64,000 nucleotides of DNA, from positions 64,001-128,000 of the IMG/VR virus record IMGVR_UViG_3300027896_000010, one strand, 5' to 3'. Within the stretch, counting starts at the first letter, position 1, and every line of letters starts with the position of its first letter. Positions 3,200 to 64,000 of the stretch are shown here, piece after piece. The position numbers and the translations under genes are program-made. This stretch comes from a virus. The notes under the pieces are model-generated. The model saw nothing but the letters and a program-made list of their open reading frames with translations. It ran no database searches and had not been told where the DNA came from.

Positions 3200-3215
3200 C
3201 TCAAACTCCTAGCTC

Positions 3216-5131: not shown

Positions 5132-5859
5132 GTCTGTCTCGTAATCTTGTAGTTGTGCAGGGGCGGGAACGTAGCACTCAAATCCCAATGACGTTCAAGC
5201 TTGAGTTTGAAATAATCTGGGTAGTCCCGCCATGCATCCCAGCCCTGATGGTATACCTCATGTTCAAAGCGCCCTGTAATAAAACCCGACTGTTGTATGA
5301 AGCCTATTAGCACAGCATCAGCTATAGCTAATGATGTTTGCATAAACGCATCAAGTTGCTGTTTCCTAATACAAGTAAAATAGCCCCCGAAATTCGTTTG
5401 GGGGCAAAATCCATATTTGATATCAAAATAAGCTCGAAGCTCCCCGAAAGCTTTATTGGGTGTATCATAGAAATTGCTCATGTCAGTAGGCCAGCCCATT
5501 ATGCCCACCTCAGAGAATCCGAACGCCCTTCTCATCTCTCCAATCCAATCAACAGGCTTGTGGAAAAGAACATCAGAATCAGTCACCATCACAAAGGCAT
5601 CCGAATCTTCTCCCGGGAGATTCAACTGATAACCATATCGATATGCTTGGAGCATAAGGTTATCTTTGAACTGGATGAAAGTCTGGACTTTACCTATCTC
5701 GATGCGGTGGAGGATACTGGACTCTAACTCAGAACTGCGTTCGCTTCTGTTTTCAAGAATCGTTAAGTGAATAGGCTCACTAGCATTAGCTACTATACTA
5801 TCTATGAACCGTTCTGTGTACTCCAGACAATAATATGCCAGTGCATAAACATATATCAT
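5128..5859 (-). CDS. Putative GT-A fold glycosyltransferase
   Basis: N-terminal beta-alpha unit, ILENRS and VMVTDSDVLF DxD motif; lies within the sugar cluster. Confidence 0.55.
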   Translation of the reverse strand: MIYVYALAYYCLEYTERFIDSIVANASEPIHLTILENRSERSSELESSILHRIEIGKVQTFIQFKDNLMLQAYRYGYQLNLPGEDSDAFVMVTDSDVLFHKPVDWIGEMRRAFGFSEVGIMGWPTDMSNFYDTPNKAFGELRAYFDIKYGFCPQTNFGGYFTCIRKQQLDAFMQTSLAIADAVLIGFIQQSGFITGRFEHEVYHQGWDAWRDYPDYFKLKLERHWDLSATFPPLHNYKITRQT

Positions 5860-6413
5860 GCCTTCCCCTCGGACTCTTCGAGCCTCGCCTGTGCTTCTAG
5901 CACAGGGCGCTTGGGTCTGGTGCCAATCTTTTTAACAGGCACCCCCACGTACACAGACCATGGCTCTAGAGTAGAATCTGCCAGCACTAAAGCGCCAGCA
6001 CCTATTATCGTCCCTTCAGGGATATCATTATCTGGCAACACAATAGCGTTAGCACCAACAAAGACATATTTTCCAAGCCTAATAAACGAACGCCTCACAC
6101 CCCTGAACTCATCTGGAATTGTGGGGTTATTGAGCAGATATGGGTCTTCGGTGCCAGAGAATAAACGAATCCCTGAAGATATACAAACGTAATCCTCCAA
6201 GAAAGCTTCTCCACCACCAGTAATCGATGTAAATGAAGCAATGTGAATATGATTCCCAATAAAAAGCGCAAGATGCTTTCCTATGAAAACGAAGTCGTCA
6301 ATAACGATATGATTGCCAAGACTGATTACCTCTGGCGAGATAATCTTAGCAAGAGGATATATCGTTACATCTTCGCCTACGCTCTTATAACTATCCTGCC
6401 AGTACTCTATCAT
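5856..6413 (-). CDS. Hexapeptide-repeat (left-handed beta-helix) acyltransferase, VioB-like
   Basis: ISLGNHIVIDDFVFIG, VFVGANAIVLP and SVYVGVPVKKIG; directly upstream of the GT/DegT genes. Confidence 0.85.
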   Translation of the reverse strand: MIEYWQDSYKSVGEDVTIYPLAKIISPEVISLGNHIVIDDFVFIGKHLALFIGNHIHIASFTSITGGGEAFLEDYVCISSGIRLFSGTEDPYLLNNPTIPDEFRGVRRSFIRLGKYVFVGANAIVLPDNDIPEGTIIGAGALVLADSTLEPWSVYVGVPVKKIGTRPKRPVLEAQARLEESEGKA

Positions 6414-6433
6414 GCCCTCTCCTTATCTCACTA

Positions 6434-6467
6434 GGGGGAGTTAGCTTGCAACAACAACCCCCCCCCC
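6434..6467 (-). terminator. GC-rich hairpin, possible terminator
   Basis: Minus strand reads G-run-GTT...AAC-TCCCCC downstream of the 6500-7303 gene; no clear U tract. Confidence 0.35.
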
Positions 6468-6499
6468 AACAAGACTTTAGCCCTTGACCGTCAATCAAT

Positions 6500-7303
6500 C
6501 TATTGAGCAAACCCTGCAGGTACAGGACAAATCTGAGCTTCCTGCGCCCTGAGAGCATCTACTACCACCTGACAGTTGTCAACATATGGGTGGTCAGGGA
6601 CACAATACCCAAGCAACTCGGTTACGTTTTGAGCCTGACCCCAATGACTTACGATATTGTCTGAGTACCTAGCGATGGCCTCGTCCCAAGAACCAAAGTG
6701 GCAACCTATCATCCCAAATGGATTAAAGCTCCCACAGCATATAGCCCCTTTTGAGCTTTCTGCTTCTGCCTGAACTGGCCCCATATAACAACAAATCCCA
6801 GTTCGCTCCGCATTAGCGACGAAGCATTCTCCTAGACCTGCCATCGGACTCCCAGCAAGATAAGCATCAATTACTTGTACCCTTGCCACTCGTTTATCAG
6901 CATTTCTTTGTGCTATAAGCTGGTCTACTATCCATGCATGCTTTCGTGCTTCCAATTCATCAAATGTAACTGGAACATCTTGGGATATCCCTGTTCCTTC
7001 TATCTGCACTGGAAACGAAGTCTTCTTCGCTTCTGCCTCAGTTTTAGGAGCCGCTCCAGCCTTCCTTAACAACTCTGCATTCCTTAGTATATCTGCGTCT
7101 ATCTCTACCCGATAAGCCTTGAACCCTGCCTCAAAATCTCTCATGAACTTAACTTTGATAGCCATCATTCTTTCTTTTTGGGTTAGAACCTTGGCTCTTA
7201 CTGGCATCATGAGAAACATTGTTCCTATTAATGCCACCAGCACAAATCCAGTCAATAGAAAACGAGTAGTAGCTTTCCTTGTATCATTCATTATAAACAC
7301 CAC
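6500..7303 (-). CDS. Membrane-anchored lysozyme-like/glucosaminidase-like protein
   Basis: N-terminal TM helix; YLAGSPMAGLGECFV...AEAESSKG...NPFGM...FGSWDEAI resembles GH73-like cell-wall hydrolases. Confidence 0.5.
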   Translation of the reverse strand: MVFIMNDTRKATTRFLLTGFVLVALIGTMFLMMPVRAKVLTQKERMMAIKVKFMRDFEAGFKAYRVEIDADILRNAELLRKAGAAPKTEAEAKKTSFPVQIEGTGISQDVPVTFDELEARKHAWIVDQLIAQRNADKRVARVQVIDAYLAGSPMAGLGECFVANAERTGICCYMGPVQAEAESSKGAICCGSFNPFGMIGCHFGSWDEAIARYSDNIVSHWGQAQNVTELLGYCVPDHPYVDNCQVVVDALRAQEAQICPVPAGFAQ

Positions 7304-7583
7304 CTAAGCGTCAACCTCTTGAGGTCAATCGCATTGGGCAACCGCTTAGTGTAAACGCTTGCGCTTTGTCCTGCTCGATTACTTCATTCAGTTGTATTTT
7401 CTTGGATGGCGTTAAATGCCGACATCACTTCCTTATCTAATGGATTACCGTGGTGTTTTTCTCTGGCAAGGATTTTGCAATCAGGAAATTAGCCTACCCT
7501 AAAATATATCCTATCGAAACGCTGTTTCCACTAGATTGGCATACTAGCTTCCGCAGACGCTTCACACCCCTACTCAACACACC

Positions 7584-7829
7584 CTACACTATATGCGCTT
7601 TACAATGCACAAAACTCCTTGGTCTTGGACGCAAAAAATAACTCCCCAAAAATACTATCTTTGTCGATTGGCATCGAGGGCATCTAAAGAAGAAATAGTA
7701 TTCTCTCCAATAAATATTCCCACATGCTTTACACTTATAAAAATCGGGGGCAAAAGGTACACCCCAAAACATCTCGCTATCTTCATACCTGCTAAGGTCT
7801 GGGTCGATATCATAATCAGGGTTCGTCAT
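7584..7829 (-). CDS. Small zinc-ribbon protein
   Basis: CKACG...CPRCQS pair of CxxC motifs. Confidence 0.55.
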   Translation of the reverse strand: MTNPDYDIDPDLSRYEDSEMFWGVPFAPDFYKCKACGNIYWREYYFFFRCPRCQSTKIVFLGSYFLRPRPRSFVHCKAHIV

Positions 7830-7855
7830 CTTATTGCCCCTTAAGATTTCTTGCT

Positions 7856-8452
7856 TTAGTTTGTTCGTATTTCATGTTGGTATTTATTATAGAAGGCTAC
7901 CAAGTTAGTTACCATAGGTGTTCGTAACGTAGGAATCACTTCTTTGATAATTTCAACAGGCCAATCCCACCATCGTATTTCAAGCAATTTCTGTATTTCA
8001 TCTTCGTCAAATCTCTTTCTGACCATCTTCGCTGGATTACCAACCACCAAAGCATAAGGTTCTACATATCCAGCTACCACACTGAATGCACCGACTATGG
8101 CTCCATTATCTATCGTGGCACCCTCTAAAAGCCTAGCGCCCTGAGCAATCCATACATCATTTCTAATAACTATGGGTTCGGCCTCATGCTCTAGCGGTGA
8201 GTCGTATTTCGAATCCAAATATTTGCCTTCTCTTACATATGGTTTTTGTTCTCTATCTGTGTTTGCCACTGTTACATCTGTCAGGTTACTAAATGGATGC
8301 AGGGCAATATTGTACTGGGAATGTGTCTCCCCAAAATAAAACCCCACTTCATGAGCTATCGAACAAAACTTACCGATAATAATATCGCCCAATCTGCCAT
8401 TTAGTTTATTTAAAGCGGTCATAGAATAACTATATGCGCCCATCTCTATCAT
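7856..8452 (-). CDS. CatB/Vat-family (xenobiotic acyltransferase-like) hexapeptide O-acetyltransferase
   Basis: IGKFCSIA, NDVWIAQGA, VVGNPAKMVRKRF and LLEIRWWDWP family signature. Confidence 0.85.
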   Translation of the reverse strand: MIEMGAYSYSMTALNKLNGRLGDIIIGKFCSIAHEVGFYFGETHSQYNIALHPFSNLTDVTVANTDREQKPYVREGKYLDSKYDSPLEHEAEPIVIRNDVWIAQGARLLEGATIDNGAIVGAFSVVAGYVEPYALVVGNPAKMVRKRFDEDEIQKLLEIRWWDWPVEIIKEVIPTLRTPMVTNLVAFYNKYQHEIRTN

Positions 8453-8471
8453 TTATTAGCCCTTAACTTGC

Positions 8472-8915
8472 TTACCTAGAATTTCTCACCTTGACTAGAT
8501 TTCTCTCTTTGGCGCACTTCTCCAGTTCTTCTGTCTTGGCTACCCCACACCTGCAACACTTATCCTGACCCTTAATGAATTCATGCAAACATGCTTCCTG
8601 CCGAACAGTAACCATCAACTCTGCATACTGCTTGGCTTCCTTCTCATACGTTTCTGCCATCTCAATATTGCCTTCCTTTTTGGCTTCAATAAATAAAGCC
8701 ATAGTGTTTTCGAAAGCATAGTTCAGGTTAGCATAACGGCTGGCTAAGTCAATCGAAGGCCCAATCTTTTTCTGTACTGCCTTCCTCGCCCTCTCCCTCA
8801 GGTTGATAACCTCCCCAGTATCACTATGGATATCATAGTCTGGTATACTGAGACGCATATTCTCACTACACATGAGCCTCTCGAAATAAACGTGAACCTC
8901 TTCCTCAGACATCAT
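8472..8915 (-). CDS. Hypothetical protein with C-terminal Cys/His cluster
   Basis: CLHEF...CCRCG; gene-dense context. Confidence 0.5.
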   Translation of the reverse strand: MMSEEEVHVYFERLMCSENMRLSIPDYDIHSDTGEVINLRERARKAVQKKIGPSIDLASRYANLNYAFENTMALFIEAKKEGNIEMAETYEKEAKQYAELMVTVRQEACLHEFIKGQDKCCRCGVAKTEELEKCAKERNLVKVRNSR

Positions 8916-9153
8916 CTTCCCCTTCCACTTCTTTCTCTATCGGGAGCATTTTTTTCTGTGACATAATAGTATTTGGCATGATACCCAAGGTCTGACCATG
9001 CTCACTTACTATACCAGTATATAGGTCTAGCTCCTGCCCCATCTCTATCCCGAAAGCTTCAAGAACCCTCTTCGCCTTAAAGGGTTCTGCGTCGAACGCC
9101 ATTCCATTAATAATTATTCTGCGCTCTTCCTCGTGATAAAATACTTTTGGCAT
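8905..9153 (-). CDS. Hypothetical protein
   Basis: Overlapping stop/start with both neighbours. Confidence 0.5.
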   Translation of the reverse strand: MPKVFYHEEERRIIINGMAFDAEPFKAKRVLEAFGIEMGQELDLYTGIVSEHGQTLGIMPNTIMSQKKMLPIEKEVEGEDDV

Positions 9154-9740
9154 TACTTCTTCCTCCCTCTCTGCCGTTGCCCTTCACCATTTAGACTAGT
9201 AATGTCTTCCAGAACTTTTTGTTCATAGGCAGTCAATATTCTCTTATCTTGGTCAACTGGCTTCGAAATTGATAACTCCTTCTCATATATAATCTTTGCG
9301 ATTATGAATGCGTCTATAACATGTTCATTATCAATACCGTCCAGTTCAGACCATTTCCGTACGGCAGAAACCGCTGCTTCCATTTTCTTAGCATTGCCTT
9401 TACCACAGGCAAACTTTTTTGCCATGTGAATCTGAATCACATAAAATCTCTTAACTCGCTTAACCCTAAGCTCCTGCACAGCCACCAACTTGGCAATGCC
9501 ACCAACCTCTCCCATGGCTTCACGACCATACTTCGAGCCTAATGAGTAGCCCTCTATGGCCAAAGCGTCAACTGGGGCGTGTCTTTTAACAAGCTCCTTT
9601 ATAAACTTATAAATGGCATCAAGCCGTGTGATGTCAGTTACATCGGGAGAAAACACTCCCTGTTCAACTATACCTTCGCCACCAAGTACTACAAAACCTG
9701 TATTGGTGAGTGACTGGTCAAGGCCAATAACTAATGTCAA
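9153..9740 (-). CDS. ruvC: RuvC-like Holliday junction resolvase
   Basis: IGLDQSLTNTG, AIEGYS, KKFACGKGNAKK and NEHVIDAFIIA acidic active-site pattern. Confidence 0.85.
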   Translation of the reverse strand: MTLVIGLDQSLTNTGFVVLGGEGIVEQGVFSPDVTDITRLDAIYKFIKELVKRHAPVDALAIEGYSLGSKYGREAMGEVGGIAKLVAVQELRVKRVKRFYVIQIHMAKKFACGKGNAKKMEAAVSAVRKWSELDGIDNEHVIDAFIIAKIIYEKELSISKPVDQDKRILTAYEQKVLEDITSLNGEGQRQRGRKK

Positions 9741-18217: not shown

Positions 18218-20772
18218 TTTTCCTCCTTGTCTTCTATCTCTTCTTCCTCGTCCACTATAGATGCCACATCGGGAACCTCTTCACCAATGAGCTTAGTCCT
18301 CGCTTCTATTTTTGATATCAAATCTTCTTTGACTTCAGGATTCATGTCGAGATGGTTCTTAATCCGCTTGCGTCCTACAAATTTCTCGCCATCCAGAACA
18401 AACGAATTACCAGTTTTAAGAATCAGGTGGTCACTCATAGCAAGACTCAAGACTTCTTCTGTCCTATCAATATCGCCTAAGTCATAATTAAAAGCGAACA
18501 TTGCCTTACGCATAAGGGCTTGAGTTTTATCCTTCTCTACAACCGCTTGGATATAATTGCCCACCACCATGAGTCGCTCAACGTTTTTCATCTTTACAGG
18601 GTCAAAATCAATTCGCTTCTCCTTAATCTTATCTGCTACCGAAAATTGTATCTTCTGCGATGAAAAGAAATCCATCGCTCTACCACCCGGCTGGGTCTTA
18701 GGTGAGCCGAACATAATGCCCACCTTCTCCCGAACCTGATTGATAAAAATGAGCAAAGTATTCTCATTAGCGGCTGTCAGCTTCCGTAGAGCCTTGGACA
18801 TTATCCGAGCCAATTCTGCCACGCTTGCTTGTTCGGCTAACTTCTCCATCTCGGCTTTGGGTAAAAGAGCCGCGATGCTATCAATCACTATCACGCCAAA
18901 AAGCTTACTCTTTAGCATTTGATAGATAACATCCATAGCTTTCTCACCATATGCTGGGCGGTTGATGATAAGCTCGTCACAATTAACCCCAAGCCTAGTC
19001 GCCCACTCAACATCCAGAGACTTCTCTGGTTCTATTAATCCACAGGTCATTCCTGCCTTCTGGGCACAAGCGATTGTCTTAAGCGCAGTCAGCGTGTTGT
19101 GGCACACAAACCCATTTGACCAAAATGTATGAATATCTGGAACTTCAAAGTCCCATACTTCAGCCATTCCTGCGCGGATTTCGATGACTTCATCATAATA
19201 GTAATGAAGTTTTATCAAATCCTCAAGATATAGAAAGTCATCAAGGTCTGATGCAACTGGCTTCAAAGCATCGACATAAGAACGCATATCATCATAAGGT
19301 ATCGCATCAGAAGTTCTATGACTTGAATACTTGCGATGTGTAAGTAACGGGTCTACTTTCTCTAACAAACTCCATAGGCCATCTTTGCCAAAAGCCCCCT
19401 TACCACTTTTATAAGTACCCATTCTGCGCCGAACATCATTGCGTAACCTCGCTATTCTCTCAAACTGGTATGGAACACGACCTGTTGTAACCATTCGTTG
19501 CCGACCAGTGCCTTCTTTTTTTTGAACAAGTTTATCACTCAAAACCTTGACCTTGCGGGGTGTAAGAAGACCAATCTCTCGCTCAAATATTTCTAAATCA
19601 TCTCCTCGTATCGAAAGCATCCAATAATCCCGCATTATCTGTGACCCATTAGTTGCACAAGTACTAACATGCTTGACTTTGGAAACCACCCCAAAGTTAA
19701 GCAACATCAACTGGATTTGTTGAATCATTTTACTAGACGCACTCACTATCCGCATGTTTCTAGCAGATATTTCCATATCCATATAAGCCCTAAGAAATTC
19801 GGCTTGAATTTCTTTGGGAGCCATTATTATCAAATCTGGGATATACTTATCCCTAGATTTACCTTTTACCCCAAGTTGTTCAAGACACCACACTAAGTGA
19901 GCAGAGCAAATTCTTACATATCCTATTCTGCCTTGTGACAATACTTTGACCGCAATACCCTCCCCAAATAAAGAATCTGCCACCGCCACAAAATCATTCA
20001 GTGTAGCCTCGTCCTTCTGAGTAAATGCTAGTTGCTTGCGTTGGATATCCCCTTCAGCTATCATATAACCCAAAAATCTAGCAAGTTCCTTTGTTACTTT
20101 CTTCGGAAACTTAATGTGTTTGGCAGTATGATATTTGAATTTTTTATTCTGGTGTACTTCCTCAGCATAAACATTGAACCCCAAATCACAAGTTATCTCT
20201 GTCTTGTTTGCAAACTGAAGCATGCCTCGTCTTATTGCTGGCTTATCGCCTATTTTCAAATCCCTCAGGGCTACAAAGTGAAAATTCCCATCCTCGCCCA
20301 TGACAAGTATCGGATGATTCAAGGAGCCTTCCAATTCAAGCCCAGTTTTGGTCACAACTCTTATGGTTGGTTTAACCCCTCCCCTATACAAACAACTAGT
20401 CTTCTTCATACCATTAGCCGAAACAATCTTGCGTTCATGGGTGACCCACTCATCAGGTTGCAGTTCAATACCCTGCGTAAGTTCCCCCATAGTCACAAGA
20501 CCCAACTCCGAATCAATAACATAACTATCAAGTGCTACGCACTTAGCTGTTGCGAAATCCCCCCACAGAAGCACCGAGCGACCCAATGGGAATCCCCCAC
20601 CAAGTACCCTATCTAATGTTAGGCTACCCGAAGATATTTTAACAATCTGAAGGCTTGGGTCGTTGGCAAATTTGACTACTCCTTCTCCGAATTCCCTATT
20701 GAGACTATCCTTAAGAGCTTCCAGTTCTTTCTGATGGTCAGACTTAGCTTTCGCCATTAATACACCCTCCAT
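18214..20772 (-). CDS. recA: RecA recombinase containing an intein
   Basis: ISSGSLTLDRVLGGGFPLGR, P-loop GDFATAK|T split by the intein, IEPEKSLD, VIVIDSIAAL, IFINQVREKVG and PGGRAMDFFSS; likely start MAKAK. Confidence 0.93.
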   Translation of the reverse strand: MEGVLMAKAKSDHQKELEALKDSLNREFGEGVVKFANDPSLQIVKISSGSLTLDRVLGGGFPLGRSVLLWGDFATAKCVALDSYVIDSELGLVTMGELTQGIELQPDEWVTHERKIVSANGMKKTSCLYRGGVKPTIRVVTKTGLELEGSLNHPILVMGEDGNFHFVALRDLKIGDKPAIRRGMLQFANKTEITCDLGFNVYAEEVHQNKKFKYHTAKHIKFPKKVTKELARFLGYMIAEGDIQRKQLAFTQKDEATLNDFVAVADSLFGEGIAVKVLSQGRIGYVRICSAHLVWCLEQLGVKGKSRDKYIPDLIIMAPKEIQAEFLRAYMDMEISARNMRIVSASSKMIQQIQLMLLNFGVVSKVKHVSTCATNGSQIMRDYWMLSIRGDDLEIFEREIGLLTPRKVKVLSDKLVQKKEGTGRQRMVTTGRVPYQFERIARLRNDVRRRMGTYKSGKGAFGKDGLWSLLEKVDPLLTHRKYSSHRTSDAIPYDDMRSYVDALKPVASDLDDFLYLEDLIKLHYYYDEVIEIRAGMAEVWDFEVPDIHTFWSNGFVCHNTLTALKTIACAQKAGMTCGLIEPEKSLDVEWATRLGVNCDELIINRPAYGEKAMDVIYQMLKSKLFGVIVIDSIAALLPKAEMEKLAEQASVAELARIMSKALRKLTAANENTLLIFINQVREKVGIMFGSPKTQPGGRAMDFFSSQKIQFSVADKIKEKRIDFDPVKMKNVERLMVVGNYIQAVVEKDKTQALMRKAMFAFNYDLGDIDRTEEVLSLAMSDHLILKTGNSFVLDGEKFVGRKRIKNHLDMNPEVKEDLISKIEARTKLIGEEVPDVASIVDEEEEIEDKEEK
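19096..20541 (-). mobile_element. Intein (482 aa) with LAGLIDADG homing endonuclease domain
   Basis: Starts CVALDS, ends FWSNGFVCHN followed by Thr+1; block B LEGSLNHPIL; LAGLIDADG-like LARFLGYMIAEG and FLRAYMDMEI. Confidence 0.92.
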
Positions 20773-46083: not shown

Positions 46084-48114
46084 TCACTGGCTTACAATCA
46101 TTGACCAACTTCCTCCTTCTGCTTGAACGTCCATTATGTAAATTCCGGGGGAGACGTTGATAATGACTGAGTCGTCCCTGTTGCCAATCTCATTTTCCAA
46201 CAAGTCGACTTGTTCTCCGTCAGAACGGTAAAGCCAGATAATGAAGTTACTGTCTCCACGATATGCCATGTCAAAACGGGCGGCTCCCCCATTAAGTGTG
46301 AAGAACCCCGTATGGCTGTCAGACGACCCTTGATACGTCTGGGGTACTCCAGCTGCCGAGGCAGGACGAGGCTGTTCAACGTGTATCGTCCACGGTCCAG
46401 AGGCGTAAGTGATGGCCAAATAATAGTTGCCGTCCGAGGGAACACTGAAGACTCGGCCTCCGCTATATTTAGACAGTTCATTAGCTATAAGTTCTAGGTC
46501 ATTTCCCTGACTGTCTCTTAACCACACAATGAAGTTCGAGTACTGTTCCGAAGTACTGTACGTTAAATCAAAGGTCGTAATCCCCTTCATCAACCCGAAA
46601 ATCGCGGTCGCTTGGTTGCCATTTCCGCTGAAGTCATAGGTGTAAGGTGCGGGAGGGGTAGGAGGTGGAGGTGGTGGAGGCGGTGGAGGCGGAGGCGGAG
46701 GAAAATTAGGCCCCTTGCCTTGATAGTCAAAGTACATCGGTCGTTCCACTATAAGGCCCGAATCGGATGTTACGTCGATAGCGAAGTCCTGTTCAGGCCC
46801 GATAGCAAGATTGGCATCGACCGTTACCCTAGTGTTGGCAGGAACATTAACACTTTGAGGTATAGAGGTTCCACTCGTGTTCCTGTAAGTGATATTGGCG
46901 GTCGTGGCAAGGCTGTTCGGGTTCTGTATGCAGAGCCAAGTCTCAAAACCGGCCCTGCTACAACCCTCGGCGAACATCGAGACGGTCTGGGGAGAAGTAG
47001 CCCCGAAGGAGTCGGAGCCTCCGTCCCACTTGTCCCTGTATAGGAAATACATAGGTCGTTCTACGGCAATAGGAATATTGCTTACTACCTTGGAACTGAC
47101 ATCCTGTTCTGGCCCGATGTCGGACGCCACGTTCACGGTCTTCCTCGAATGCGGCGCGACCGAGTATGACTTTTTCTGTGTTCGTCCAGTCGCCATCTGA
47201 TAGGTGATATTTGCCGATGCCGTTGTACCGCTGGGATTCTGAAGGGTCAACCAAGTATCGAATCCCTGTCGAGTACACCCCTCCCCAAAATACCAGCTAG
47301 TGGACAGGCTGTTGGCACCTACGGCATCATGTCCCCCGTTCCACTTGCCTTGGTAGTTGAAATACATAGGACGTTCGGCCACGACAGGACTTCCAGTAAT
47401 CTTCACCGAAACGTTCTCGTTATCCCCGACCGCATCACGGACATTGCGGGTGAATCTACTCCAAGGGCCAACAGAAACAACCTCCGACAAAACGGAACCA
47501 TTCTCATTCATGTACTGTATGGTTATAGTCGCATAGGAATCACTTGGATTCAGGATACAGAGCCACTCGTCAAATCCGGGCTGTGTACACCCCTCAGCAA
47601 AGTACCACGTTGACTGGGGATGACCAACTCCCATGGCAACGTGGCCACCAGTTCTACCATTGCTGTTGAAGTACACGGACCTCTCTACGACAATGGGAGT
47701 GGAGTTAGTAACCTTACACGCTACATCGTGTTCGCCATAGAAGACATCGTTGACATAGATGGTCAAGCGGGAATTTGCGCCGACTTCAACTGACTGACTT
47801 TTAATGGAACCATCTTCCAAGTAGTAGGTAATCTGCGGGTTCACGGAATAAATTGAGTAGCGGTTGAAAATGCACAGGTAGGTATTGAACCCGCTTCTGG
47901 TACATCCCTCAGCAAAGTACCACGTTGACTTGCCCTGCTGGGTTCCCATTACAACGTGGCCACCAGTCCAGTCGGCGAAAGCAGCCGGGGACAATGTGAG
48001 AAGTAGGAGGAAAATCAGAACCGCTGATAGCAATACCTTTCTCACTATGATGACCCTTTTCTTTGTCACCTTCCCCTTGATGAACGTCCGTATTCGCTTC
48101 GTCTTCTCCATCAT
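46084..48114 (-). CDS. Secreted surface protein with WYFAEG (DUF5719-like) repeats, poly-Pro linker and PPC-like C-terminal domains
   Basis: Signal peptide ending AFA; four repeats of (W/M)(Y)F(A/G)EGC.R.GF.TW/YL.I.NP...ERP/SMYF; long Pro run; two beta-sandwich-like domains. Confidence 0.75.
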   Translation of the reverse strand: MMEKTKRIRTFIKGKVTKKRVIIVRKVLLSAVLIFLLLLTLSPAAFADWTGGHVVMGTQQGKSTWYFAEGCTRSGFNTYLCIFNRYSIYSVNPQITYYLEDGSIKSQSVEVGANSRLTIYVNDVFYGEHDVACKVTNSTPIVVERSVYFNSNGRTGGHVAMGVGHPQSTWYFAEGCTQPGFDEWLCILNPSDSYATITIQYMNENGSVLSEVVSVGPWSRFTRNVRDAVGDNENVSVKITGSPVVAERPMYFNYQGKWNGGHDAVGANSLSTSWYFGEGCTRQGFDTWLTLQNPSGTTASANITYQMATGRTQKKSYSVAPHSRKTVNVASDIGPEQDVSSKVVSNIPIAVERPMYFLYRDKWDGGSDSFGATSPQTVSMFAEGCSRAGFETWLCIQNPNSLATTANITYRNTSGTSIPQSVNVPANTRVTVDANLAIGPEQDFAIDVTSDSGLIVERPMYFDYQGKGPNFPPPPPPPPPPPPPPTPPAPYTYDFSGNGNQATAIFGLMKGITTFDLTYSTSEQYSNFIVWLRDSQGNDLELIANELSKYSGGRVFSVPSDGNYYLAITYASGPWTIHVEQPRPASAAGVPQTYQGSSDSHTGFFTLNGGAARFDMAYRGDSNFIIWLYRSDGEQVDLLENEIGNRDDSVIINVSPGIYIMDVQAEGGSWSMIVSQ

Positions 48115-51784: not shown

Positions 51785-52939
51785 CTATCCCTTGATTACT
51801 GCTAATGGCCTCAGTACCACTAGTGGCTCGATTAAGTCAAGCTCCTGAGCGATAACCTTTTCGATATTCTTATAGGCTCCGGGGGCTTCATCCAAATCTT
51901 TCTTATGGCGAATGCCATGGACAATATCACCCATCTTAGCCATCTCGTCTTTTAAGCTAAGTTCGCGCTTCGCCTGATTACGACCCATTTTTCTACCGGC
52001 TCCATGGGAGCATGACATAAAGGATTCAATGTTGCCCTTCCCCTTAACGATATATGAGTGCGTTCCTTGAGAGCCGGGGATAATTCCAATCTGCCCTTCT
52101 CGTGCTGAGGTTGCCCCTTTGCGATGAACCATAACATTCTGCCCAAAGTGATTCTCAAAAACCGCATAATTATGATGTATATTGGTTATCTCAAGCTTAT
52201 CCCATACATCATCTGCATCAATATCAAATGCTTCTATGGCCTTTCTCATCATCATCTCACGATTAGCCTGTGCGAATTGCAAACAATATTCCATTTCTTC
52301 CATATAGGCTTGACCCTCATCTGTATCTAGCGGGAGGAAAGCTAATTGCCACTCCTTAGGAATTGAACTGTGCCATCTATTGTTTAGCTCGACAGCAATC
52401 TTATTGTAATAATCGGCAACCTGCTTCCCAATATTCCGCGACCCTGAATGAATCATCACATAGATGAACCCATCATCGCCCTTTTGTATTTCAATAAAAT
52501 GATTGCCACCGCCTAGTGTGCCCAGTTGCTTACGAGCCTTTTCATATTCTCGCTCCACTATCCCATTCGACAACGTCAGGCTAGGCATATAGTTTTCGGG
52601 GCACGGCACATCACGATGGCTGAATCCAACTGGAATAGTATCACGAATAAGCCCCATAGTCCTCTTGAGCGAATCAGTATCGGGAAGAGTGATATCGGTC
52701 TTCACCGCGCAGACTCCGCAACCGATATCGACCCCTACGGCATTGGGAACCACAACCCGCTTGGTCGCTAGCACCCCTCCGATTGGCATGCCGTAGCCCT
52801 GATGGGCATCAGGCATAATGGCAACATGTTTAAAAGCGAATGGCAATTTAGCCAAATGCTTTACCTGCTCCATGGCACCATCCTCGATATAATCGAGCCA
52901 TAGTTTTATCGGAAGCCCATCACTCTGCACTACTTGCAT
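51785..52939 (-). CDS. rtcB: RtcB RNA ligase (3'-phosphate/5'-OH)
   Basis: MPDAHQG, GVDIGCG, GTLGGGNHF, HSGSR, HHNYA, HRKGAT, PGSQG, HGAGR and DEAPGAYK. Confidence 0.95.
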   Translation of the reverse strand: MQVVQSDGLPIKLWLDYIEDGAMEQVKHLAKLPFAFKHVAIMPDAHQGYGMPIGGVLATKRVVVPNAVGVDIGCGVCAVKTDITLPDTDSLKRTMGLIRDTIPVGFSHRDVPCPENYMPSLTLSNGIVEREYEKARKQLGTLGGGNHFIEIQKGDDGFIYVMIHSGSRNIGKQVADYYNKIAVELNNRWHSSIPKEWQLAFLPLDTDEGQAYMEEMEYCLQFAQANREMMMRKAIEAFDIDADDVWDKLEITNIHHNYAVFENHFGQNVMVHRKGATSAREGQIGIIPGSQGTHSYIVKGKGNIESFMSCSHGAGRKMGRNQAKRELSLKDEMAKMGDIVHGIRHKKDLDEAPGAYKNIEKVIAQELDLIEPLVVLRPLAVIKG

Positions 52940-58402: not shown

Positions 58403-58482
58403 TGGCTGGAGAGGTAGGATTCGAACCTACGACATGACATTTGGCTCCAAGGGCCAACGTTCTACCGCTGAACTACTCTCCA
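58403..58482 (-). tRNA. tRNA-Gln(UUG), atypical (C33, 10-nt variable loop), encoded CCA
   Basis: TGGAGAG/CTCTCCA acceptor with G73-CCA; GTTC/GAAC D stem; TTGGC-CCTTGGA-GCCAA anticodon arm; GTAGG-TTCGAAT-CCTAC T arm. Confidence 0.8.
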
Positions 58483-59647: not shown

Positions 59648-60192
59648 TGGTGTGTCCTTTGATTTCGCTGTGCAGATGTCTCCTTATCGGCATATGGGTT
59701 TTCTACATGCGGATGTGCTGGTCTTTGTCTCTCGCCATGCTCAGCGATGTCCATAGCAATGGGGGGGGCGAGTAATGGTGGATTATTAACATACTCTCTT
59801 ATAAAGTGGTTCGTATACCCATTCTCATCTTCCGCTGTCACATTAGTCGGGCCATCACGACCAATCTCAAGCCTGATAACTGGCTCTCGTATTGTCATCC
59901 CATTACGATTCACCATCGGCTCTGGCATATGTCCTTCTGTTAACGTCCTAGGGACTGGTGACAAATTCATAGATGGGAGTCGGAGATTAGCTCCTCTATC
60001 ATGATTAGCGATGAGACCTCTTTTCATCTCATCTGCTATCCTATCAATCTCGTAAAGCAAGGCTCCTACCCCACCATCCATTAGGCGAGGGTCTACAGTG
60101 CCTTTACATTCTAAAATATCCCCCGGCACACCGGGGCTTCGAATTTCAAATTTCAAAGCAAAGTAATCCCTGTCTCTCCACCTATCATACAT
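59644..60192 (-). CDS. Hypothetical protein
   Basis: Coding-strand ORF with GGAGG RBS. Confidence 0.45.
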   Translation of the reverse strand: MYDRWRDRDYFALKFEIRSPGVPGDILECKGTVDPRLMDGGVGALLYEIDRIADEMKRGLIANHDRGANLRLPSMNLSPVPRTLTEGHMPEPMVNRNGMTIREPVIRLEIGRDGPTNVTAEDENGYTNHFIREYVNNPPLLAPPIAMDIAEHGERQRPAHPHVENPYADKETSAQRNQRTHH

Positions 60193-60203
60193 CGCTATCC
60201 TCC

Positions 60204-60442
60204 TACTCCGTGATTACTCCGTGATGTAAAACATCATATCATATCATTTGGGGTCAAGCAAAACATCCGTGATTAATCCGTAATATGGATTCCTGACCCA
60301 AATGAAAGTTCGAAACCTTTGATATCAATATCCCATACTCCGCGAGTACTCCGCGAGACTCTATCATAAATCCATAATATGGAATCTACCCCCCCCCCAA
60401 TGAAAGTTCGAATCAAAGTTCGAACCTTTTGATATCAATATC
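60204..60442. repeat. Imperfect tandem duplication (about 129 bp and 107 bp units) with internal 11-mer doublets and palindromes
   Basis: TACTCCGTGAT x2 versus TACTCCGCGAG x2; ATCCGTAATATGGAT versus ATCCATAATATGGAA; AATGAAAGTTCGAA x2; CTTTGATATCAATATC-like x2. Confidence 0.8.
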
Positions 60443-60450
60443 AAAATAGC

Positions 60451-60479
60451 AAAAACCCCCCTGCATTTCTGTAGGAGGG
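60451..60479 (-). terminator. Rho-independent terminator after the Ubl gene
   Basis: CCTCCCTAC-AGAAAT-GCAGGGGGG followed by TTTTT. Confidence 0.65.
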
Positions 60480-60508
60480 CTATATTGCTGAGTCGGAGAA
60501 GGTCGTCT

Positions 60509-60730
60509 CTAGAGGCAACCACCCCTTATCTCAGGGACAAGCGTGACTACGGTGGACTCCGATTCCTTCATCGGAGCATCGGGGGTGGTCGGCATGCCGT
60601 TCACCCTGATGTCGAAGCCCTCGCCAGTCTCACCAGCCTGAGCGAGTACGCTAGCTACGGTGGTAGCGTCTGCCGCCGCTACCTCAATCTCCCTGACATC
60701 CTCACCGAGCTTGGCAAGCTTTATCTGCAT
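60509..60730 (-). CDS. Ubiquitin-like (beta-grasp, ThiS/MoaD-like) protein ending IRGG-CL
   Basis: 73 aa from ATG 8 nt after GGAGGAGG; beta-grasp pattern (IKLAKLG..VREIEV, TVASVL, IRVNG, VVTLVP) with di-Gly two residues from the end. Confidence 0.85.
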   Translation of the reverse strand: MQIKLAKLGEDVREIEVAAADATTVASVLAQAGETGEGFDIRVNGMPTTPDAPMKESESTVVTLVPEIRGGCL

Positions 60731-60828
60731 CTGCAACACCTCCTCCTTGTCCTTCAGCCAGTTCCTTGGCTTTCCCCTTATCCAATCCGCTCTATGAAGT
60801 TTTCAAACTGTTAACTTCTTACTATGAT

Positions 60829-60857
60829 ATTATAACACAGGTCAAACTGGGTGTCCA
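60829..60857 (-). promoter_or_regulatory. Sigma-70-type promoter TGGACA-N17-TATAAT dedicated to the Ubl gene
   Basis: Near-consensus -35/-10 with TGn extension in the E1-Ubl gap. Confidence 0.7.
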
Positions 60858-60866
60858 GCTTTTTCT

Positions 60867-61526
60867 CTAAGCCGTCAGGAGCGTCATCGTCTTCAGGTCG
60901 AAGATTATCTCCTGATTCACAGTCTCCCCCTTAGCGAACTTCTTGACCTGATTGCATATCAAGCCAGCTATCATGAACACGTTGTAGATAACGGCCTGTG
61001 CTGTGCAAGGAGCCTCGATGGCCTTATCGTCATCGTACAGGGTGCGCTCATACATCTTTATCTCGCTGGGCGAACAGGTGTTCACCGTATAAAGCCGACA
61101 TACCTCAGCGCCCATACGAGCCTCGATGTAGACCTTCACAGATGGATTGAACTTTACCCGCTCCCAGATGGCCTTACGAGATTCCATGCTATCCACACCG
61201 CTAATGACTATACCATGGATGGGCTGGCTTGTAAAATGCTCAGCATGACCCTTGATTTTGATGGCTCCGAACGACTCACAGATTTCGGTAAGAGCATCGA
61301 CCTTGTTCTTGGTAATGTCCTCGCACCGATAGACCTGATTGGGCAGGTTGTGGTTCTCAATGGTATCGCCATCATAAACCGTGATATCACCAACGCCCAT
61401 CTTGCTAAGAGCCAGCACGGTAGGCGACCCGATTCCACCAGCACCGATAACCGTAACAGGGTCGGTAAGCTCCTTGTTAGGGTCAAGAATATCTAACTGC
61501 CGCCAGTAGTCCAGTTTAACTGCCAT
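60867..61526 (-). CDS. E1-like ThiF/MoeB-family adenylyltransferase
   Basis: GAGGIG, DGDTIENHNLPNQ, KVDAL, GVDSMESR and putative catalytic Cys in APCTAQA; start moved to MAVKL (GAGGAGGT RBS). Confidence 0.9.
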   Translation of the reverse strand: MAVKLDYWRQLDILDPNKELTDPVTVIGAGGIGSPTVLALSKMGVGDITVYDGDTIENHNLPNQVYRCEDITKNKVDALTEICESFGAIKIKGHAEHFTSQPIHGIVISGVDSMESRKAIWERVKFNPSVKVYIEARMGAEVCRLYTVNTCSPSEIKMYERTLYDDDKAIEAPCTAQAVIYNVFMIAGLICNQVKKFAKGETVNQEIIFDLKTMTLLTA

Positions 61527-61566
61527 ATCGACCTCCTCTCCTAGTCCTCGTCCTTTGGATGCATCC

Positions 61567-61595
61567 ATTATACCATACTTTGTGTGAATTCACAA
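61567..61595 (-). promoter_or_regulatory. Sigma-70-type promoter TTGTGA-N17-TATAAT upstream of E1
   Basis: TGGTATAAT extended -10 in the JAB-E1 gap. Confidence 0.6.
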
Positions 61596-61599
61596 ATAC

Positions 61600-62709
61600 C
61601 TATGAGGGGGTATCGTCCTCGCCTTTTTCCTCAACATCCCATTCGACATCTTCGACATCGTAATTATTGAACATATACATGTGGTACTGCTCATCGGTTA
61701 GCATCACGATGCCATCCTGCATAGTACCATTCGCTATGGCTTCGGCTTCAAGCTCTTCAGCCTCTTCCTGCGACCCCATGACAGCCATCTTAGTGCCATC
61801 CCTGTCCATGTAACACCCTATTATGACAAGGTCTTCGTCATTGTCAATAGCATCCTTGTGTATGCAAGCGTTATTCTCCTGAGAGTAGACGTAATTCTCT
61901 GAACAGTTACCGTCACCGTCATCGTAAGAACACCCTACACAGGGATTCTCTTTGTCCCACTCGATGCCTATGATGCTATCGGTTACTTCTTCGTCATCCT
62001 CGACATCAACCCATACTTTTTTTTCGTCGTCCCATCGCCGTGATTTATTCCCCCTAGCCTGTCTGTTCTTGGCGTAGGAGCTAGCACAACCGTCAAAACC
62101 ATACATCCCTCCCTTGCCACCCCAAAGCTGCCCGGTCTCGCTATTAGGCTTGCCCTTATAATAGGGGAAATGAGTGGTCAATGTCACGACTGTAACCTTG
62201 GCTTCGATATCTGCCTTGATAGCGATAGCAAGTTCATCCTCTTCCTCAGTAGTCTTGTCAAGCTGAAGCGAGAGCTTATCGACTGACAGGCGATAGGGGC
62301 GGTACTGGTCGATACGAACCAGATACTCACCATTCTTGTTGCCGACGATTGATATCATCCACTCGTTTTTGAACCGCTCCATGGTGTCCGTATCTGTCGT
62401 ACTCCAGAAGGTTCCCATATCAGCGTGGCTGTGCCACCACACCCTGAAGTTAGAGGGGTTCTTGCCAGCCTGTACCGTCTCGACGATAAAGTTAGCGATT
62501 GCCTCTTCACTCAGGTCAGTGGACGCTCCTGTGGCCTTCTGCTCGAAGAGCATGATGTCAGTGATGAGGAACGACATCTCCTCTGCGTTATAAGCCACCT
62601 CGCCCAGCCCAGATATCTCGCCCTCTGCAAAGGCGATATACAGGTCAAGCTTTCGTTTCGCCAGCGGGGTAATAAAAACGTCAGGTATCTTAGTTTCAGC
62701 GTTACTCAT
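61600..62709 (-). CDS. JAB/MPN+ (JAMM) metalloprotease with long acidic C-terminal extension
   Basis: GEISGLG catalytic Glu; HSH-ADMGTFW-S-TT-D matches HxH-x7-S-x2-D. Confidence 0.88.
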   Translation of the reverse strand: MSNAETKIPDVFITPLAKRKLDLYIAFAEGEISGLGEVAYNAEEMSFLITDIMLFEQKATGASTDLSEEAIANFIVETVQAGKNPSNFRVWWHSHADMGTFWSTTDTDTMERFKNEWMISIVGNKNGEYLVRIDQYRPYRLSVDKLSLQLDKTTEEEDELAIAIKADIEAKVTVVTLTTHFPYYKGKPNSETGQLWGGKGGMYGFDGCASSYAKNRQARGNKSRRWDDEKKVWVDVEDDEEVTDSIIGIEWDKENPCVGCSYDDGDGNCSENYVYSQENNACIHKDAIDNDEDLVIIGCYMDRDGTKMAVMGSQEEAEELEAEAIANGTMQDGIVMLTDEQYHMYMFNNYDVEDVEWDVEEKGEDDTPS

Positions 62710-62710
62710 A

Positions 62711-63991
62711 TTACGCCACCTCCTCCTTCTTGGTTACTTTCTTCCTAGGCCAGTGTCCAATACCATGCATTGGGTCGGCATCATTATATGTCGCAAGGTA
62801 TTGCATCATTATCTGCGCTATCACGGCGAACTCATAACTCGCAGTCAGTTCGGCAATACCGTGTCCAATATTGCCTAGGCAACACCAGCCCTCGCCATCA
62901 ACGTGCGGATGCATCCAACCATCGACTACCTTGGTCAGATTGTAGCACCTCACGCCACCCTCTGAACCATCGGTGTAGATATCAATCCGAAACTTACCGA
63001 TTTCGTACTCGTCACCATCATACGGAATCGAGATGCTATCAGTAAACACCTGTACGATACTATCCTTGACTCGTACACGCTCGACTCCCGGCACGTTACA
63101 TAAGCTCGTGAACTCAGCGTCAAACTTGCCATCGTCTCCACCATTGAGCTTTTCGATAACAGCCAGTTCAGCCTCAAGCTCCATAATCTGCCTGAGCTTG
63201 GCGACCAGTTCTACCTGATATGTCTGTACGTTCTTTTTAGCTTGGGCAAGGCTTGCAGTAGCCTTGTCTTTCTTTACATGCATCCTCTTGCTACATTCCT
63301 GTATATACAGTAGGCGTGAAGCCTCAGCCTCTGCCTTGATGGCTTTCTCACGTTGCTTTGCAAACTTTTCTTTCATCTTGGGGTCAGCACTATACTGAAC
63401 GACGAATGCTTCCATGATATGCCTAATAAGAATGTTTGTATCCCTACCATGAGGAAGGTCAAAATGGACGTATAGGTTGTTTCCAAGATACTCAGCGACT
63501 ATCATCCCATTCTCATCAAGAATGGGATTGCCAACGCCACTAAAAGCCATGCCATCTCGCTGAGAGCCTGTTAATTTGATGCCAAAGGCGCTGTCCATAT
63601 ATCGCTCTTCTTCCTTATCATCAAAGTCAGGGATAGACCAGAACCAGATGTACAGCTTGCCATCATCAATGACAGGTTCATGAGCATAACCGTGAGGATT
63701 ACTGACCCGAATCTTAAGACCCATAGTGTCAGCAAACTCTTCCAGAACAGGGAGCATAAAATTCCAATTTTCTATGTTGGCATTGCTAGTGCGCCTCACA
63801 GGCATTTCGGCTTGTCGCGCATTCTCAGTCGCCGTAACAATACTAGTTTCCTTCATAAGCGTGACTCGCCGCTTGTCAGTCTGCATACGATTAAATCGGA
63901 TATCACGGCGACCCAGCAAATCTAACACTTTATACAAAGAATATTCTGGGAAGGCAACGCCAGTTATGGCTTCAGGCATTTCAACCGTCAT
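62711..63991 (-). CDS. E2/UBC-like conjugating domain fused to an N-terminal domain and long coiled-coil (may extend beyond the window)
   Basis: C-terminal HPHVDGEGWCCLG matches HPN/H-x-x-x-x-G-x-x-C-L of E2 folds, followed by helices ending YLATYN; frame stays open to the window edge. Confidence 0.72.
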   Translation of the reverse strand: MTVEMPEAITGVAFPEYSLYKVLDLLGRRDIRFNRMQTDKRRVTLMKETSIVTATENARQAEMPVRRTSNANIENWNFMLPVLEEFADTMGLKIRVSNPHGYAHEPVIDDGKLYIWFWSIPDFDDKEEERYMDSAFGIKLTGSQRDGMAFSGVGNPILDENGMIVAEYLGNNLYVHFDLPHGRDTNILIRHIMEAFVVQYSADPKMKEKFAKQREKAIKAEAEASRLLYIQECSKRMHVKKDKATASLAQAKKNVQTYQVELVAKLRQIMELEAELAVIEKLNGGDDGKFDAEFTSLCNVPGVERVRVKDSIVQVFTDSISIPYDGDEYEIGKFRIDIYTDGSEGGVRCYNLTKVVDGWMHPHVDGEGWCCLGNIGHGIAELTASYEFAVIAQIMMQYLATYNDADPMHGIGHWPRKKVTKKEEVA

Positions 63992-64000
63992 TTCGGTAAC

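Follow-up and report, generated by a model that had tools for sequence, protein, structure and literature searches.

A phage-encoded module of predicted ubiquitin-like conjugation proteins with tandem E2-like genes

The 193-kb genome of a large, contractile-tailed freshwater phage carries a five-gene module, ordered E2a-E2b-JAB-E1-Ubl and lying entirely on the minus strand, which we interpret as a phage-run cascade that reversibly tags proteins with a ubiquitin-like protein (Ubl) and serves the phage's own infection programme. We regard this interpretation as probable, with conjugation, targets and purpose remaining matters of inference; among its supports is the family-wide conservation of the catalytic residues, namely Cys174 of the E1, Cys403 of the E2 and the JAMM motif of the JAB protein. 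The window analysed is a stretch of 64,000 nucleotides (positions 64,001 to 128,000 of the IMG/VR record), to which the coordinates below refer unless the genome is named. The initial annotation had described four minus-strand open reading frames here, and their positions and motifs stand; their number does not, as there are five genes. The E2 frame thought to extend to 63991 is in fact cut by the window edge, its true start lying 87 nt past that edge, and a second E2 gene directly upstream, outside the window, had been overlooked. The features are as follows.

E2a: genome 128148-129569 (L001:6149-7570), minus strand, wholly outside the window; 473 aa, tandem paralogue of E2b.
E2b: 62711..64000, true start at genome 128087, minus strand; 458 aa, with ACT-like head, GATase-like domain, coiled coil and UBC domain.
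JAB/JAMM zinc isopeptidase (predicted): 61600..62709, minus strand; domain at about residues 1-180, followed by an acidic, low-complexity C-terminal tail.
Minimal ThiF/MoeB-type E1: 60867..61526 (longest open reading frame to 61568), minus strand; 219 aa, ThiF match at E=1e-20.
Sigma70-like promoter consensus, TGGACA-17-TG-TATAAT (11/12): 60829..60857, minus strand, in the 128-bp gap between E1 and Ubl.
Single beta-grasp Ubl: 60509..60739, minus strand; 76 aa, GTG start, ending IRGG-CL.

The E1 probably starts at 61526, where a strong Shine-Dalgarno sequence is found, rather than at 61568. The putative promoter in the E1-Ubl gap may allow the tag to be produced in excess; this is a lead only, and promoter matches in the region are in total no more numerous than in shuffled sequences. 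Neighbour clustering revealed no flanking gene of the phage that recurs beside other modules, save a generic response regulator. Methyltransferase, GNAT and SNF2 genes were considered as parts of the module and rejected, since they do not recur beside other modules.

That the contig is viral, as had been proposed, is borne out by its terminase, tail sheath and baseplate genes and by its status as an IMG/VR virus record, estimated to be 95% complete; a host chromosomal island is accordingly rejected. An assembly artefact can likewise be dismissed, because the same 6-kb stretch occurs with zero differences in a second assembly, which probably derives from the same sample and is therefore not independent. 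No tyrosine integrase was found in the phage, which fits a lytic lifestyle, and no proteasome gene was found.

E2b comprises an ACT/ferredoxin-like head (residues 1-85), a class-I-GATase-like domain lacking the catalytic Cys (95-232), a helix or coiled coil of ~80 residues (236-314) and a UBC domain (316-448). In the AlphaFold2 model (pLDDT 90.8), the latter shows the helix, four-stranded meander and C-terminal helices of the UBC fold, and the fold suspected from the sequence was recovered in structure searches (Foldseek probability ~0.99; Z 7.5-7.8 over ~115 residues), as illustrated by Ubc13 (Z 7.8, rmsd 3.5, 113 residues aligned). The motif H393-P394-H395, followed by C403 at the catalytic position (HPH-x7-C), aligns with the HPN and catalytic Cys of UbcH7, so that C403 is in register. 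The match remains middling, with Z under 8, a sequence E-value of 0.006 and HPH in place of HPN; fold matches of the head domain are weak (Z 5-6.3). Across 103 E2 sequences sharing 22-38% identity with the E2b query, C403 is conserved without exception, P394 and G405 are also invariant, and the Asn of HPN is replaced by His in 97%. Conserved His residues lie upstream of the catalytic Cys, in the HPH-x7-C motif, and none downstream. The family, which falls into about 3,800 clusters when grouped at 50% identity, is unannotated: no model for it exists in Pfam, NCBIfam, PHROGs or PADLOC, and a single member weakly matches UQ_con.

E2a, separated from E2b by 60 bp, has the same domain order and keeps HPH-x7-C; the two proteins are 39% identical over 463 aa (E=2e-102) and are sisters in the tree (support 95). 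Divergence is greatest in the head (26% identity) and coil (28%), as compared with 39% in the GATase-like domain and 52% in the UBC domain. Independent duplication of E2 has occurred in at least six lineages; in six, the copies pair as sisters (support 92-100). The E1 and JAB genes, unlike E2, are nearly always single-copy. This duplication of E2 alone, together with the architecture of the protein, suggests that the head chooses the substrate without an E3. For the idea that the head is a substrate receptor, the architecture is the only support.

The E1 is a single domain with the ATP-binding motif GAGGIG and a crossover-loop Cys (C174, in PCTA) that is its only conserved Cys and is invariant in 80/80 sequences; it lacks Zn-binding CxxC pairs, a rhodanese domain and an inactive adenylation domain. 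Its closest solved relative is ThiF, and C174 lines up with the Cys in the crossover loop of the E. coli protein, whose Zn cysteines have no counterpart. The JAB protein falls below the cut-off of the Prok-JAB model (E=0.011), and an intact JAMM motif (E31, H93-x-H95, S103, D106) is invariant in four homologues and is present in 80 of 90 proteins of the viral set and 53 of 54 cellular matches. It is predicted to act both in Ubl maturation and as a deconjugating enzyme. The Ubl, the only one in the phage genome, matched SAMP2 and ThiS weakly, and its family profile retrieved SAMP2 (E=3e-9) as well as ubiquitin chains, with the KGG motif falling on the RGG of ubiquitin. Its di-glycine, initially taken to be C-terminal, is followed by Cys-Leu; since the protein ends GG-CL it needs trimming, and it is predicted to be a precursor cut after the di-glycine. 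Relatives encode polyUbl precursors in which each repeat has a KGG or KGN junction and the chain closes with a single additional residue, as in polyubiquitin genes. Extended and mature Ubls number 52 and 19 in loci with JAB, and 5 and 10 in loci without. We do not count this association as evidence, nearly all loci lacking JAB coming from a single clade of Methylomirabilota and unnamed relatives.

On these grounds the following pathway may be proposed. The JAB protein would strip Cys-Leu from the Ubl and expose Gly73-Gly74, as inferred from the motif, the polyUbl precursors and the precedent of Bil. The minimal E1, probably a homodimer, would adenylate Gly74 and then bear the Ubl in thioester linkage to Cys174; here the fold and the invariant Cys are observed and the chemistry is inferred. 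The Ubl would then be handed to Cys403 of E2b or to the equivalent Cys of E2a, a transfer for which the UBC fold and catalytic register provide the basis. In the apparent absence of an E3, each E2 would select its substrate through the N-terminal head, kept near the UBC site by the coiled coil, and form an isopeptide bond on a substrate lysine, so that two E2s would provide two specificities, as their architecture and the repeated E2-only duplication lead us to infer. Finally, the JAB protein would remove the tag again. No conjugate, binding or expression data are available for the cascade. As its targets we tentatively put first those host proteins, among them defence proteins, that the phage would need to block or take over; behind these we rank phage proteins of replication or assembly, a doubtful but possible choice. 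In several phage clades the module is located amid replication genes, and the gene neighbourhood gives no hint of a tagging target.

The arrangement recurs widely. Among 80 IMG/VR loci collected through E1 alone, E1, E2, JAB and Ubl are adjacent and co-oriented in 59, so that the module is unlikely to be a chance assembly; neighbour clustering of the viral loci disclosed no conserved fifth gene. The module is not virus-specific. Cellular copies occur in chromosomal contexts in Methylomirabilota, Patescibacteria, Chloroflexota and other uncultured bacteria, many of them amid housekeeping genes and some (L123 and L169) in integrative-element contexts. Apparently vertical retention in Methylomirabilota chromosomes excludes a purely viral job. 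In a quick E1 tree, in which one sequence of unknown origin (L006) was labelled viral, viral and cellular E1s interleave, with 18 changes, at least four of them forced by strong branches.

Cultured phages carry related loci. Xanthomonas phage PhiXhv-12 encodes a small GG-ending protein, an 892-aa protein that the UBC profile picks out of a set of 23 proteins (E=5e-9), and an E1, with no JAB seen at this locus. Related JAB and E1 genes stand in the same order in crAss001 (gp79-76) and Flavobacterium phage FpV4 (gp53-50), where the fit of the upstream genes to the E2 profile is weak (E=0.009 and 0.17, respectively) and the first gene lacks a terminal GG; tblastn searches of cultured phages with E2b and with one distant E2 gave no match. 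The ThiF and MPN genes of crAss-like phages have reportedly been annotated. The cultured-phage homologues are named as thiamine biosynthesis (in GenBank), metalloprotease or hypothetical proteins, and our analysis suggests that the first of these names is wrong.

The module encodes all four activities of the bacterial BilABCD systems of types I and II (Ubl, E2, JAMM deubiquitinase and E1, without an E3; 10.1101/2023.09.04.556158; PMC10557695), as the initial annotation had recognized, and shares with Bil the cysteine relay and a Ubl precursor with a short C-terminal extension. The suspected differences in E2 architecture and gene order are nevertheless real, and the E1 differs too. BilD is a large E1 with IAD (inactive adenylation), AAD and inserted, helical CYS domains and a structural four-Cys Zn site (type II structure), all absent from the 219-aa single-domain E1 of the module; BilB of both types has a conserved His downstream of the Cys, whereas the module E2 has a canonical upstream HPH and about 315 extra residues; and the bilA-B-C-D order contrasts with E2a-E2b-JAB-E1-Ubl, which is phage-encoded. 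BilB, BubB and Cap2 do not appear among the fold matches listed, which does not exclude them. The best structural and sequence matches are eukaryotic UBC E2s (UbcH7/UBE2L3, Ubc13, UbcH5, UBE2S), with which the HPx-x7-C register is shared; these have HPN, however, whereas the module E2 has HPH, a UBC domain preceded in the same chain by head domains and a coiled coil, and a ThiF-sized E1 partner. Complete E1-E2-RING cascades of the Caldiarchaeum/Asgard type include a RING E3 gene; a zf-RING_2 search gave no match for the module phage, nor for the control genomes. The type 6d systems of Iyer et al. 2006 (PMC1779556) likewise have stand-alone Ubl, JAB, E1 and E2 genes, but their E2 has a downstream His instead of the classical one, their JAB has a JAB-N domain and a helical gene is added; the PRTRC ThiF model, whose cut-off is 144.75 bits, gives the module E1 a score of 37.6. 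The module does not fit the PRTRC/6d definition. Bub systems (6E/DUF6527; PMC11601596) also combine bacterial Ubl-E1-E2 conjugation, JAB processing and polyUbl forms, but form oxyesters on a Tyr of the E1 and a Ser of the E2, have fused genes and include the BubE peptidase, whereas both Cys are invariant and the genes separate in the module. In the Cap2-Cap3 proteins of type II CBASS, Pycsar and MBL systems, E2 and E1 are fused and act on a signalling enzyme encoded next to them, with no free Ubl, in contrast to the separate genes and free Ubl seen here; PADLOC E1-E2 models match only the ATP-binding part of the E1. The archaeal SAMP2/UbaA/JAMM1 system resembles the module in its minimal E1, its JAMM peptidase and a Ubl that is the most similar to that of the phage. 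SAMPylation is not known to use an E2. Judging from the minimal E1 and the unannotated E2 family, the module is not Bil, Bub or PRTRC.

It may still be a weapon of the Bil kind. Bil tags the central tail fibre in anti-phage defence (Hor et al., 10.1101/2023.09.04.556158), and a module shuttling between bacteria and phages could let its carrier tag structural proteins of competitors, the bacteria keeping it for defence. The four shared activities, the interleaved E1s, the integrative-element contexts of some cellular copies and an E2 diversification compatible with an arms race all speak for this. We nonetheless consider it unlikely: PADLOC and NCBIfam defence models do not match the E2, no defence gene or WYL/CapHP-type regulator is apparent in the recurrent neighbour clusters (judged from unannotated representative sequences), cellular copies often lie among housekeeping genes, and a phage without an integrase has less to gain from protecting its host. 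A decoy or antidote, in which the phage would use its JAB to undo Ubl or CD-NTase conjugates of the host, or its E2 and Ubl to titrate the host E1, would accord with the possibility that the Ubl has its own promoter and with the speculation of Hor et al. (10.1101/2023.09.04.556158) that phage DUB domains counter Bil. One part would suffice for such a role, however, whereas the module supplies the entire cascade, including a phage-encoded E1 with invariant catalytic residues, and we give the idea very little credence.

Two further readings deny protein conjugation. The Ubl might be a sulfur carrier, thiocarboxylated as are ThiS, MoaD or CysO, or the E2 might transfer it to lipid, nucleic acid or a small molecule. 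ThiF as the closest solved E1 relative, the thiamine-related GenBank name, the proximity of the Ubl to the dual-use SAMP2 and the ligand-binding-type folds in the E2 can be cited in favour, and JAB peptidases mature sulfur carriers too. The absence of sulfur-pathway genes, first remarked for the immediate neighbourhood, nevertheless extends to the whole 95%-complete genome, in which no rhodanese, ThiG, MoaE, PALP or TtcA/TilS family gene was found. No donor or acceptor gene (rhodanese, desulfurase, ThiG, MoaE, CysM, TtuA) stands beside the carrier, although host enzymes could act in trans; the single Aminotran_5 match is a DegT sugar aminotransferase. Moreover, sulfur relays need no E2, yet the E2 family is present in 60 of the 80 loci, mostly with the Cys motif. 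Such a function thus appears improbable. Equally, the C-terminal domain of the E2 could be a mere RWD/UEV-like scaffold, with no transfer past the E1, as its structural Z under 8 and the lack of Pfam or NCBIfam matches for E2b would allow; given that P394, C403 and G405 are invariant in such divergent sequences, at the exact catalytic position, we find this hard to credit. A reversible protein-tagging cascade run by the phage remains the preferred reading.

A bolder extension, which is on balance doubtful, would see in the module a phage Ubl code directed at the host, in which one E1 feeds several E2s that each unite E2 and E3 in a single polypeptide through a built-in substrate receptor, the repeated duplication of E2 follows an arms race over the targets of host defence or of takeover, and the family forms a large, unrecognized, eukaryote-like E2 branch exchanged between phages and uncultured bacteria. 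The literature consulted, including Iyer 2021 on jumbo phages, Yutin 2021, Shkoporov 2018 and a 2024 review, contains no account of an E1-E2-JAB-Ubl set encoded by a phage. Related loci in cultured phages (the PhiXhv-12 group and, more distantly, crAss001, DAC15 and FpV4) make the module testable. Prokaryotic Ubl conjugation has so far been shown on the host side only (Bil, Bub, CBASS Cap2, SAMP), and the characterized kits of this kind are all bacterial anti-phage defences. A complete phage-encoded cascade, if true, would overturn this picture and make covalent protein tagging one of the means available to phages. With eukaryotic E2s as its best structural matches and yet a ThiF-sized E1 as its partner, the E2 family bears on the origin of the hierarchy in which one E1 serves many E2s, and also on that of substrate choice without an E3.

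The replicon is a contractile-tailed phage. Its record, 193,437 bp long and classed as a virus in IMG/VR (95% complete), encodes the terminase large subunit, tail sheath and baseplate proteins, together with DnaE, DnaB, a primase, an intein-bearing RecA and a sigma factor; the window corresponds to its positions 64001-128000. The genome yielded no tyrosine integrase. The terminase, tail sheath and baseplate genes and the IMG/VR status rule out a host chromosomal island and settle the viral origin that the initial annotation had left to be confirmed. The sole sequencing run listed for the record is a freshwater metagenome.

This large phage carries a real and apparently intact five-gene module for ubiquitin-like (Ubl) conjugation. 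The four minus-strand ORFs first reported are present in the sequence with the motifs named for them; the number four does not stand, as a second E2 upstream makes five. Extending the ORF reading beyond the window edge gave the order E2a-E2b-JAB-E1-Ubl, with an E2b that fills window 62711-64000, continues past the edge and totals 458 aa, and, 60 bp upstream, E2a, a 473-aa paralogue sharing 39% identity with it across the full length. A good match to a sigma70-like promoter is located between E1 and Ubl, with the caveat that the promoter total of the region was not above that of shuffles. A non-coding gap 3′ of Ubl (window 60192-60508) contains imperfect direct repeats and a small hairpin.

The E2 matches no family in the family libraries searched, and a profile search found 3,811 clusters at 50% identity. 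With 103 sequences as input, AlphaFold gave a confident model of E2b (pLDDT 90.8), which contains, ahead of the C-terminal domain:

Residues 1-85: small alpha/beta head, ACT-like by structure comparison
Residues 95-232: second domain, class-I glutamine amidotransferase (GATase)-like, catalytic cysteine absent (Z 5-6.3)
Between the GATase-like and C-terminal domains: helix of about 80 residues, seen in the AlphaFold model

For the C-terminal domain, the top Foldseek matches were UbcH7, Ubc13 and relatives (probability about 0.99), and VIA-align against eukaryotic E2s gave Z 7.5-7.8 over about 115 residues. These structural scores are middling; UBC identity is nevertheless supported independently, because the sequence profile agrees. 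UbcH7 was its best PDB match in the sequence search (E=0.006), and the profile alignment places HPH-x7-C on the HPN-x7-C of UbcH7. The UBC fold, whose absence would have refuted the original proposal, is thus upheld. P394, C403 and G405 are invariant in the 103 sequences. The coiled coil has a second cysteine, C265 (Y-x3-C-x2-R), conserved in 92 of 103 homologues, and H132, D210 and H213 of the GATase-like domain are conserved in 76-82%; these residues remain unexplained, a relay cysteine being one possibility and a site for a ligand or metal another.

At least two cysteine-bearing E2s occur in 7 of 80 viral loci. The copies are mutual closest relatives in six lineages, including the studied phage (FastTree, support 92-100), and E1 and JAB are nearly always single-copy. 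Identity between E2a and E2b falls from 52% in the UBC domain to 26-28% in head and coil. From this we infer that a single E1 supplies several E2s, with the N-terminal part of E2 picking substrates in place of an E3. Up to five E2-family genes, not all of them with the catalytic motif, occur in two phage loci (L047:607-7210, L011:5833-14318), along with additional Ubl-like ORFs that lack GG.

E1 consists of a minimal ThiF-family domain that lacks both the zinc cysteines and a rhodanese domain. Its Cys174 is invariant (80/80 sequences) and corresponds in the alignment to the crossover-loop cysteine of E. coli ThiF. JAB retains E31, H93, H95, S103 and D106. The GG described at the C-terminus of Ubl is present, albeit not terminal: the protein ends in IRGG-CL and is therefore a precursor. 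The Ubl family profile matches SAMP2 (E=3e-9) and also ubiquitin chains, its KGG motif falling on ubiquitin RGG. In several relatives the Ubl comes as two or three repeats, each junction bearing the motif and the end carrying a single additional residue; this is the layout of polyubiquitin precursors and supports processing by JAB. Many viral Ubls (loci L040, L058, L061, L078 and others) end in K-G-N-stop, their Asn standing where ubiquitin has Gly76, and polyUbl junctions read KGN. The activated residue is then Asn, unless cleavage follows the first Gly.

Bil systems work similarly, but an E1 with inactive adenylation domain, CYS domain and zinc, and an E2 with its histidine downstream of the cysteine, are features of Bil (Hor et al. 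10.1101/2023.09.04.556158; Chambers et al. PMC10557695). The phage module, with its minimal E1 and differently placed E2 histidine, is not a Bil member, as the differences in gene order and E2 architecture noted at the outset had suggested. Bub conjugation runs through tyrosine and serine oxyesters (PMC11601596), in contrast to Cys174 of E1 and Cys403 of E2 here, and 6d/PRTRC-type E2s lack the classical histidine (PMC1779556), whereas the phage E2 has HPH. The family is undescribed: a literature search that lacked most subscription papers turned up no account of such a set encoded by a phage.

The same synteny, sought in other viruses, was recovered: among 80 viral loci, collected through E1 alone and including some near-duplicate contigs, JAB occurs in 79, Ubl in 74 and this E2 in 60, and all four components, always co-oriented, in 59. 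In bacterial and archaeal genome bins, of which some short contigs could be misbinned phage, all four are present in 45 of 80 loci, and E1, E2 and Ubl in 17 more. These cellular loci belong to Methylomirabilota, Patescibacteria, Chloroflexota, Myxococcota, Bacteroidota and others; several have housekeeping genes as neighbours, and some are located in mobile elements. Viral and cellular sequences interleave in the E1 tree (18 changes, of which strong branches force at least 4), in which Methylomirabilota copies form one well-supported clade. The module is therefore common to phages and cells. Neighbour comparison across loci revealed no conserved fifth gene. Chromosomal E2-E1-Ubl sets without JAB in Methylomirabilota (loci L105, L110, L112, L119, L130, L131, L133-L135, L139), with a mature GG at the end of their Ubl, are apparently a domesticated bacterial form. 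Among cultured phages, Xanthomonas phage PhiXhv-12 (L004:2817-6693) encodes E1, a small protein ending in GG and a long one that matches the UBC profile, while crAss001 (L002:2238-6648) and FpV4 (L003:2613-6624) carry related JAB and E1 in the same order, preceded by genes that have diverged further; the annotations of these loci read thiamine biosynthesis, metalloprotease or hypothetical.

Other genes of the phage include:

Window 362-13714: large cluster whose genes look, from their ORF starts, glycosyltransferase-like or sugar-modifying
Window 4070-5188: DegT aminotransferase, within this cluster
Window 18214-20772: RecA, split by an intein carrying a LAGLIDADG endonuclease
Window 46084-48114: DUF5719 protein
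Window 51785-52939: RtcB RNA ligase
Window 58403-58482: tRNA-Gln(TTG) gene
Genome 19894-43270, outside the window: long run of small acidic ORFs with a shared starting motif like DEERLEEIISKVVKEVLG

The sugar cluster possibly serves virion or DNA glycosylation, RtcB and tRNA-Gln(TTG) are possible counters to host tRNA-cutting defences, and the acidic ORFs are apparently a large paralogue family. DUF5719, a family known from Actinomycetota, is a weak pointer to an actinobacterial host.

What has been observed is limited to folds, motifs, conservation and linkage; the mechanism proposed on this basis is inferred in all its chemistry, binding and targets. JAB would cut Ubl back to Gly74; E1 would adenylate it, hold it on Cys174 and hand it to Cys403 of either E2, from which a target lysine would receive it, and JAB could remove the tag. 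That the module performs real protein conjugation seems to us likely. Transfer of sulfur or to a non-protein acceptor is improbable: the absence of sulfur-partner genes, initially noted for the neighbourhood, extends to the 95%-complete genome, in which no rhodanese, ThiG, MoaE, PALP or TtcA/TilS families were found, and the sole Aminotran_5 match was rejected as a sulfur-pathway gene, being the DegT sugar aminotransferase. We give still less credence to an inactive scaffold, and as little to a decoy. Exclusion of competing phages is unlikely, if less so than these. Protein conjugation would rather serve the phage's own infection programme, a reading we favour with some reserve; within it, host takeover or counter-defence ranks slightly ahead of control of the phage's own proteins.
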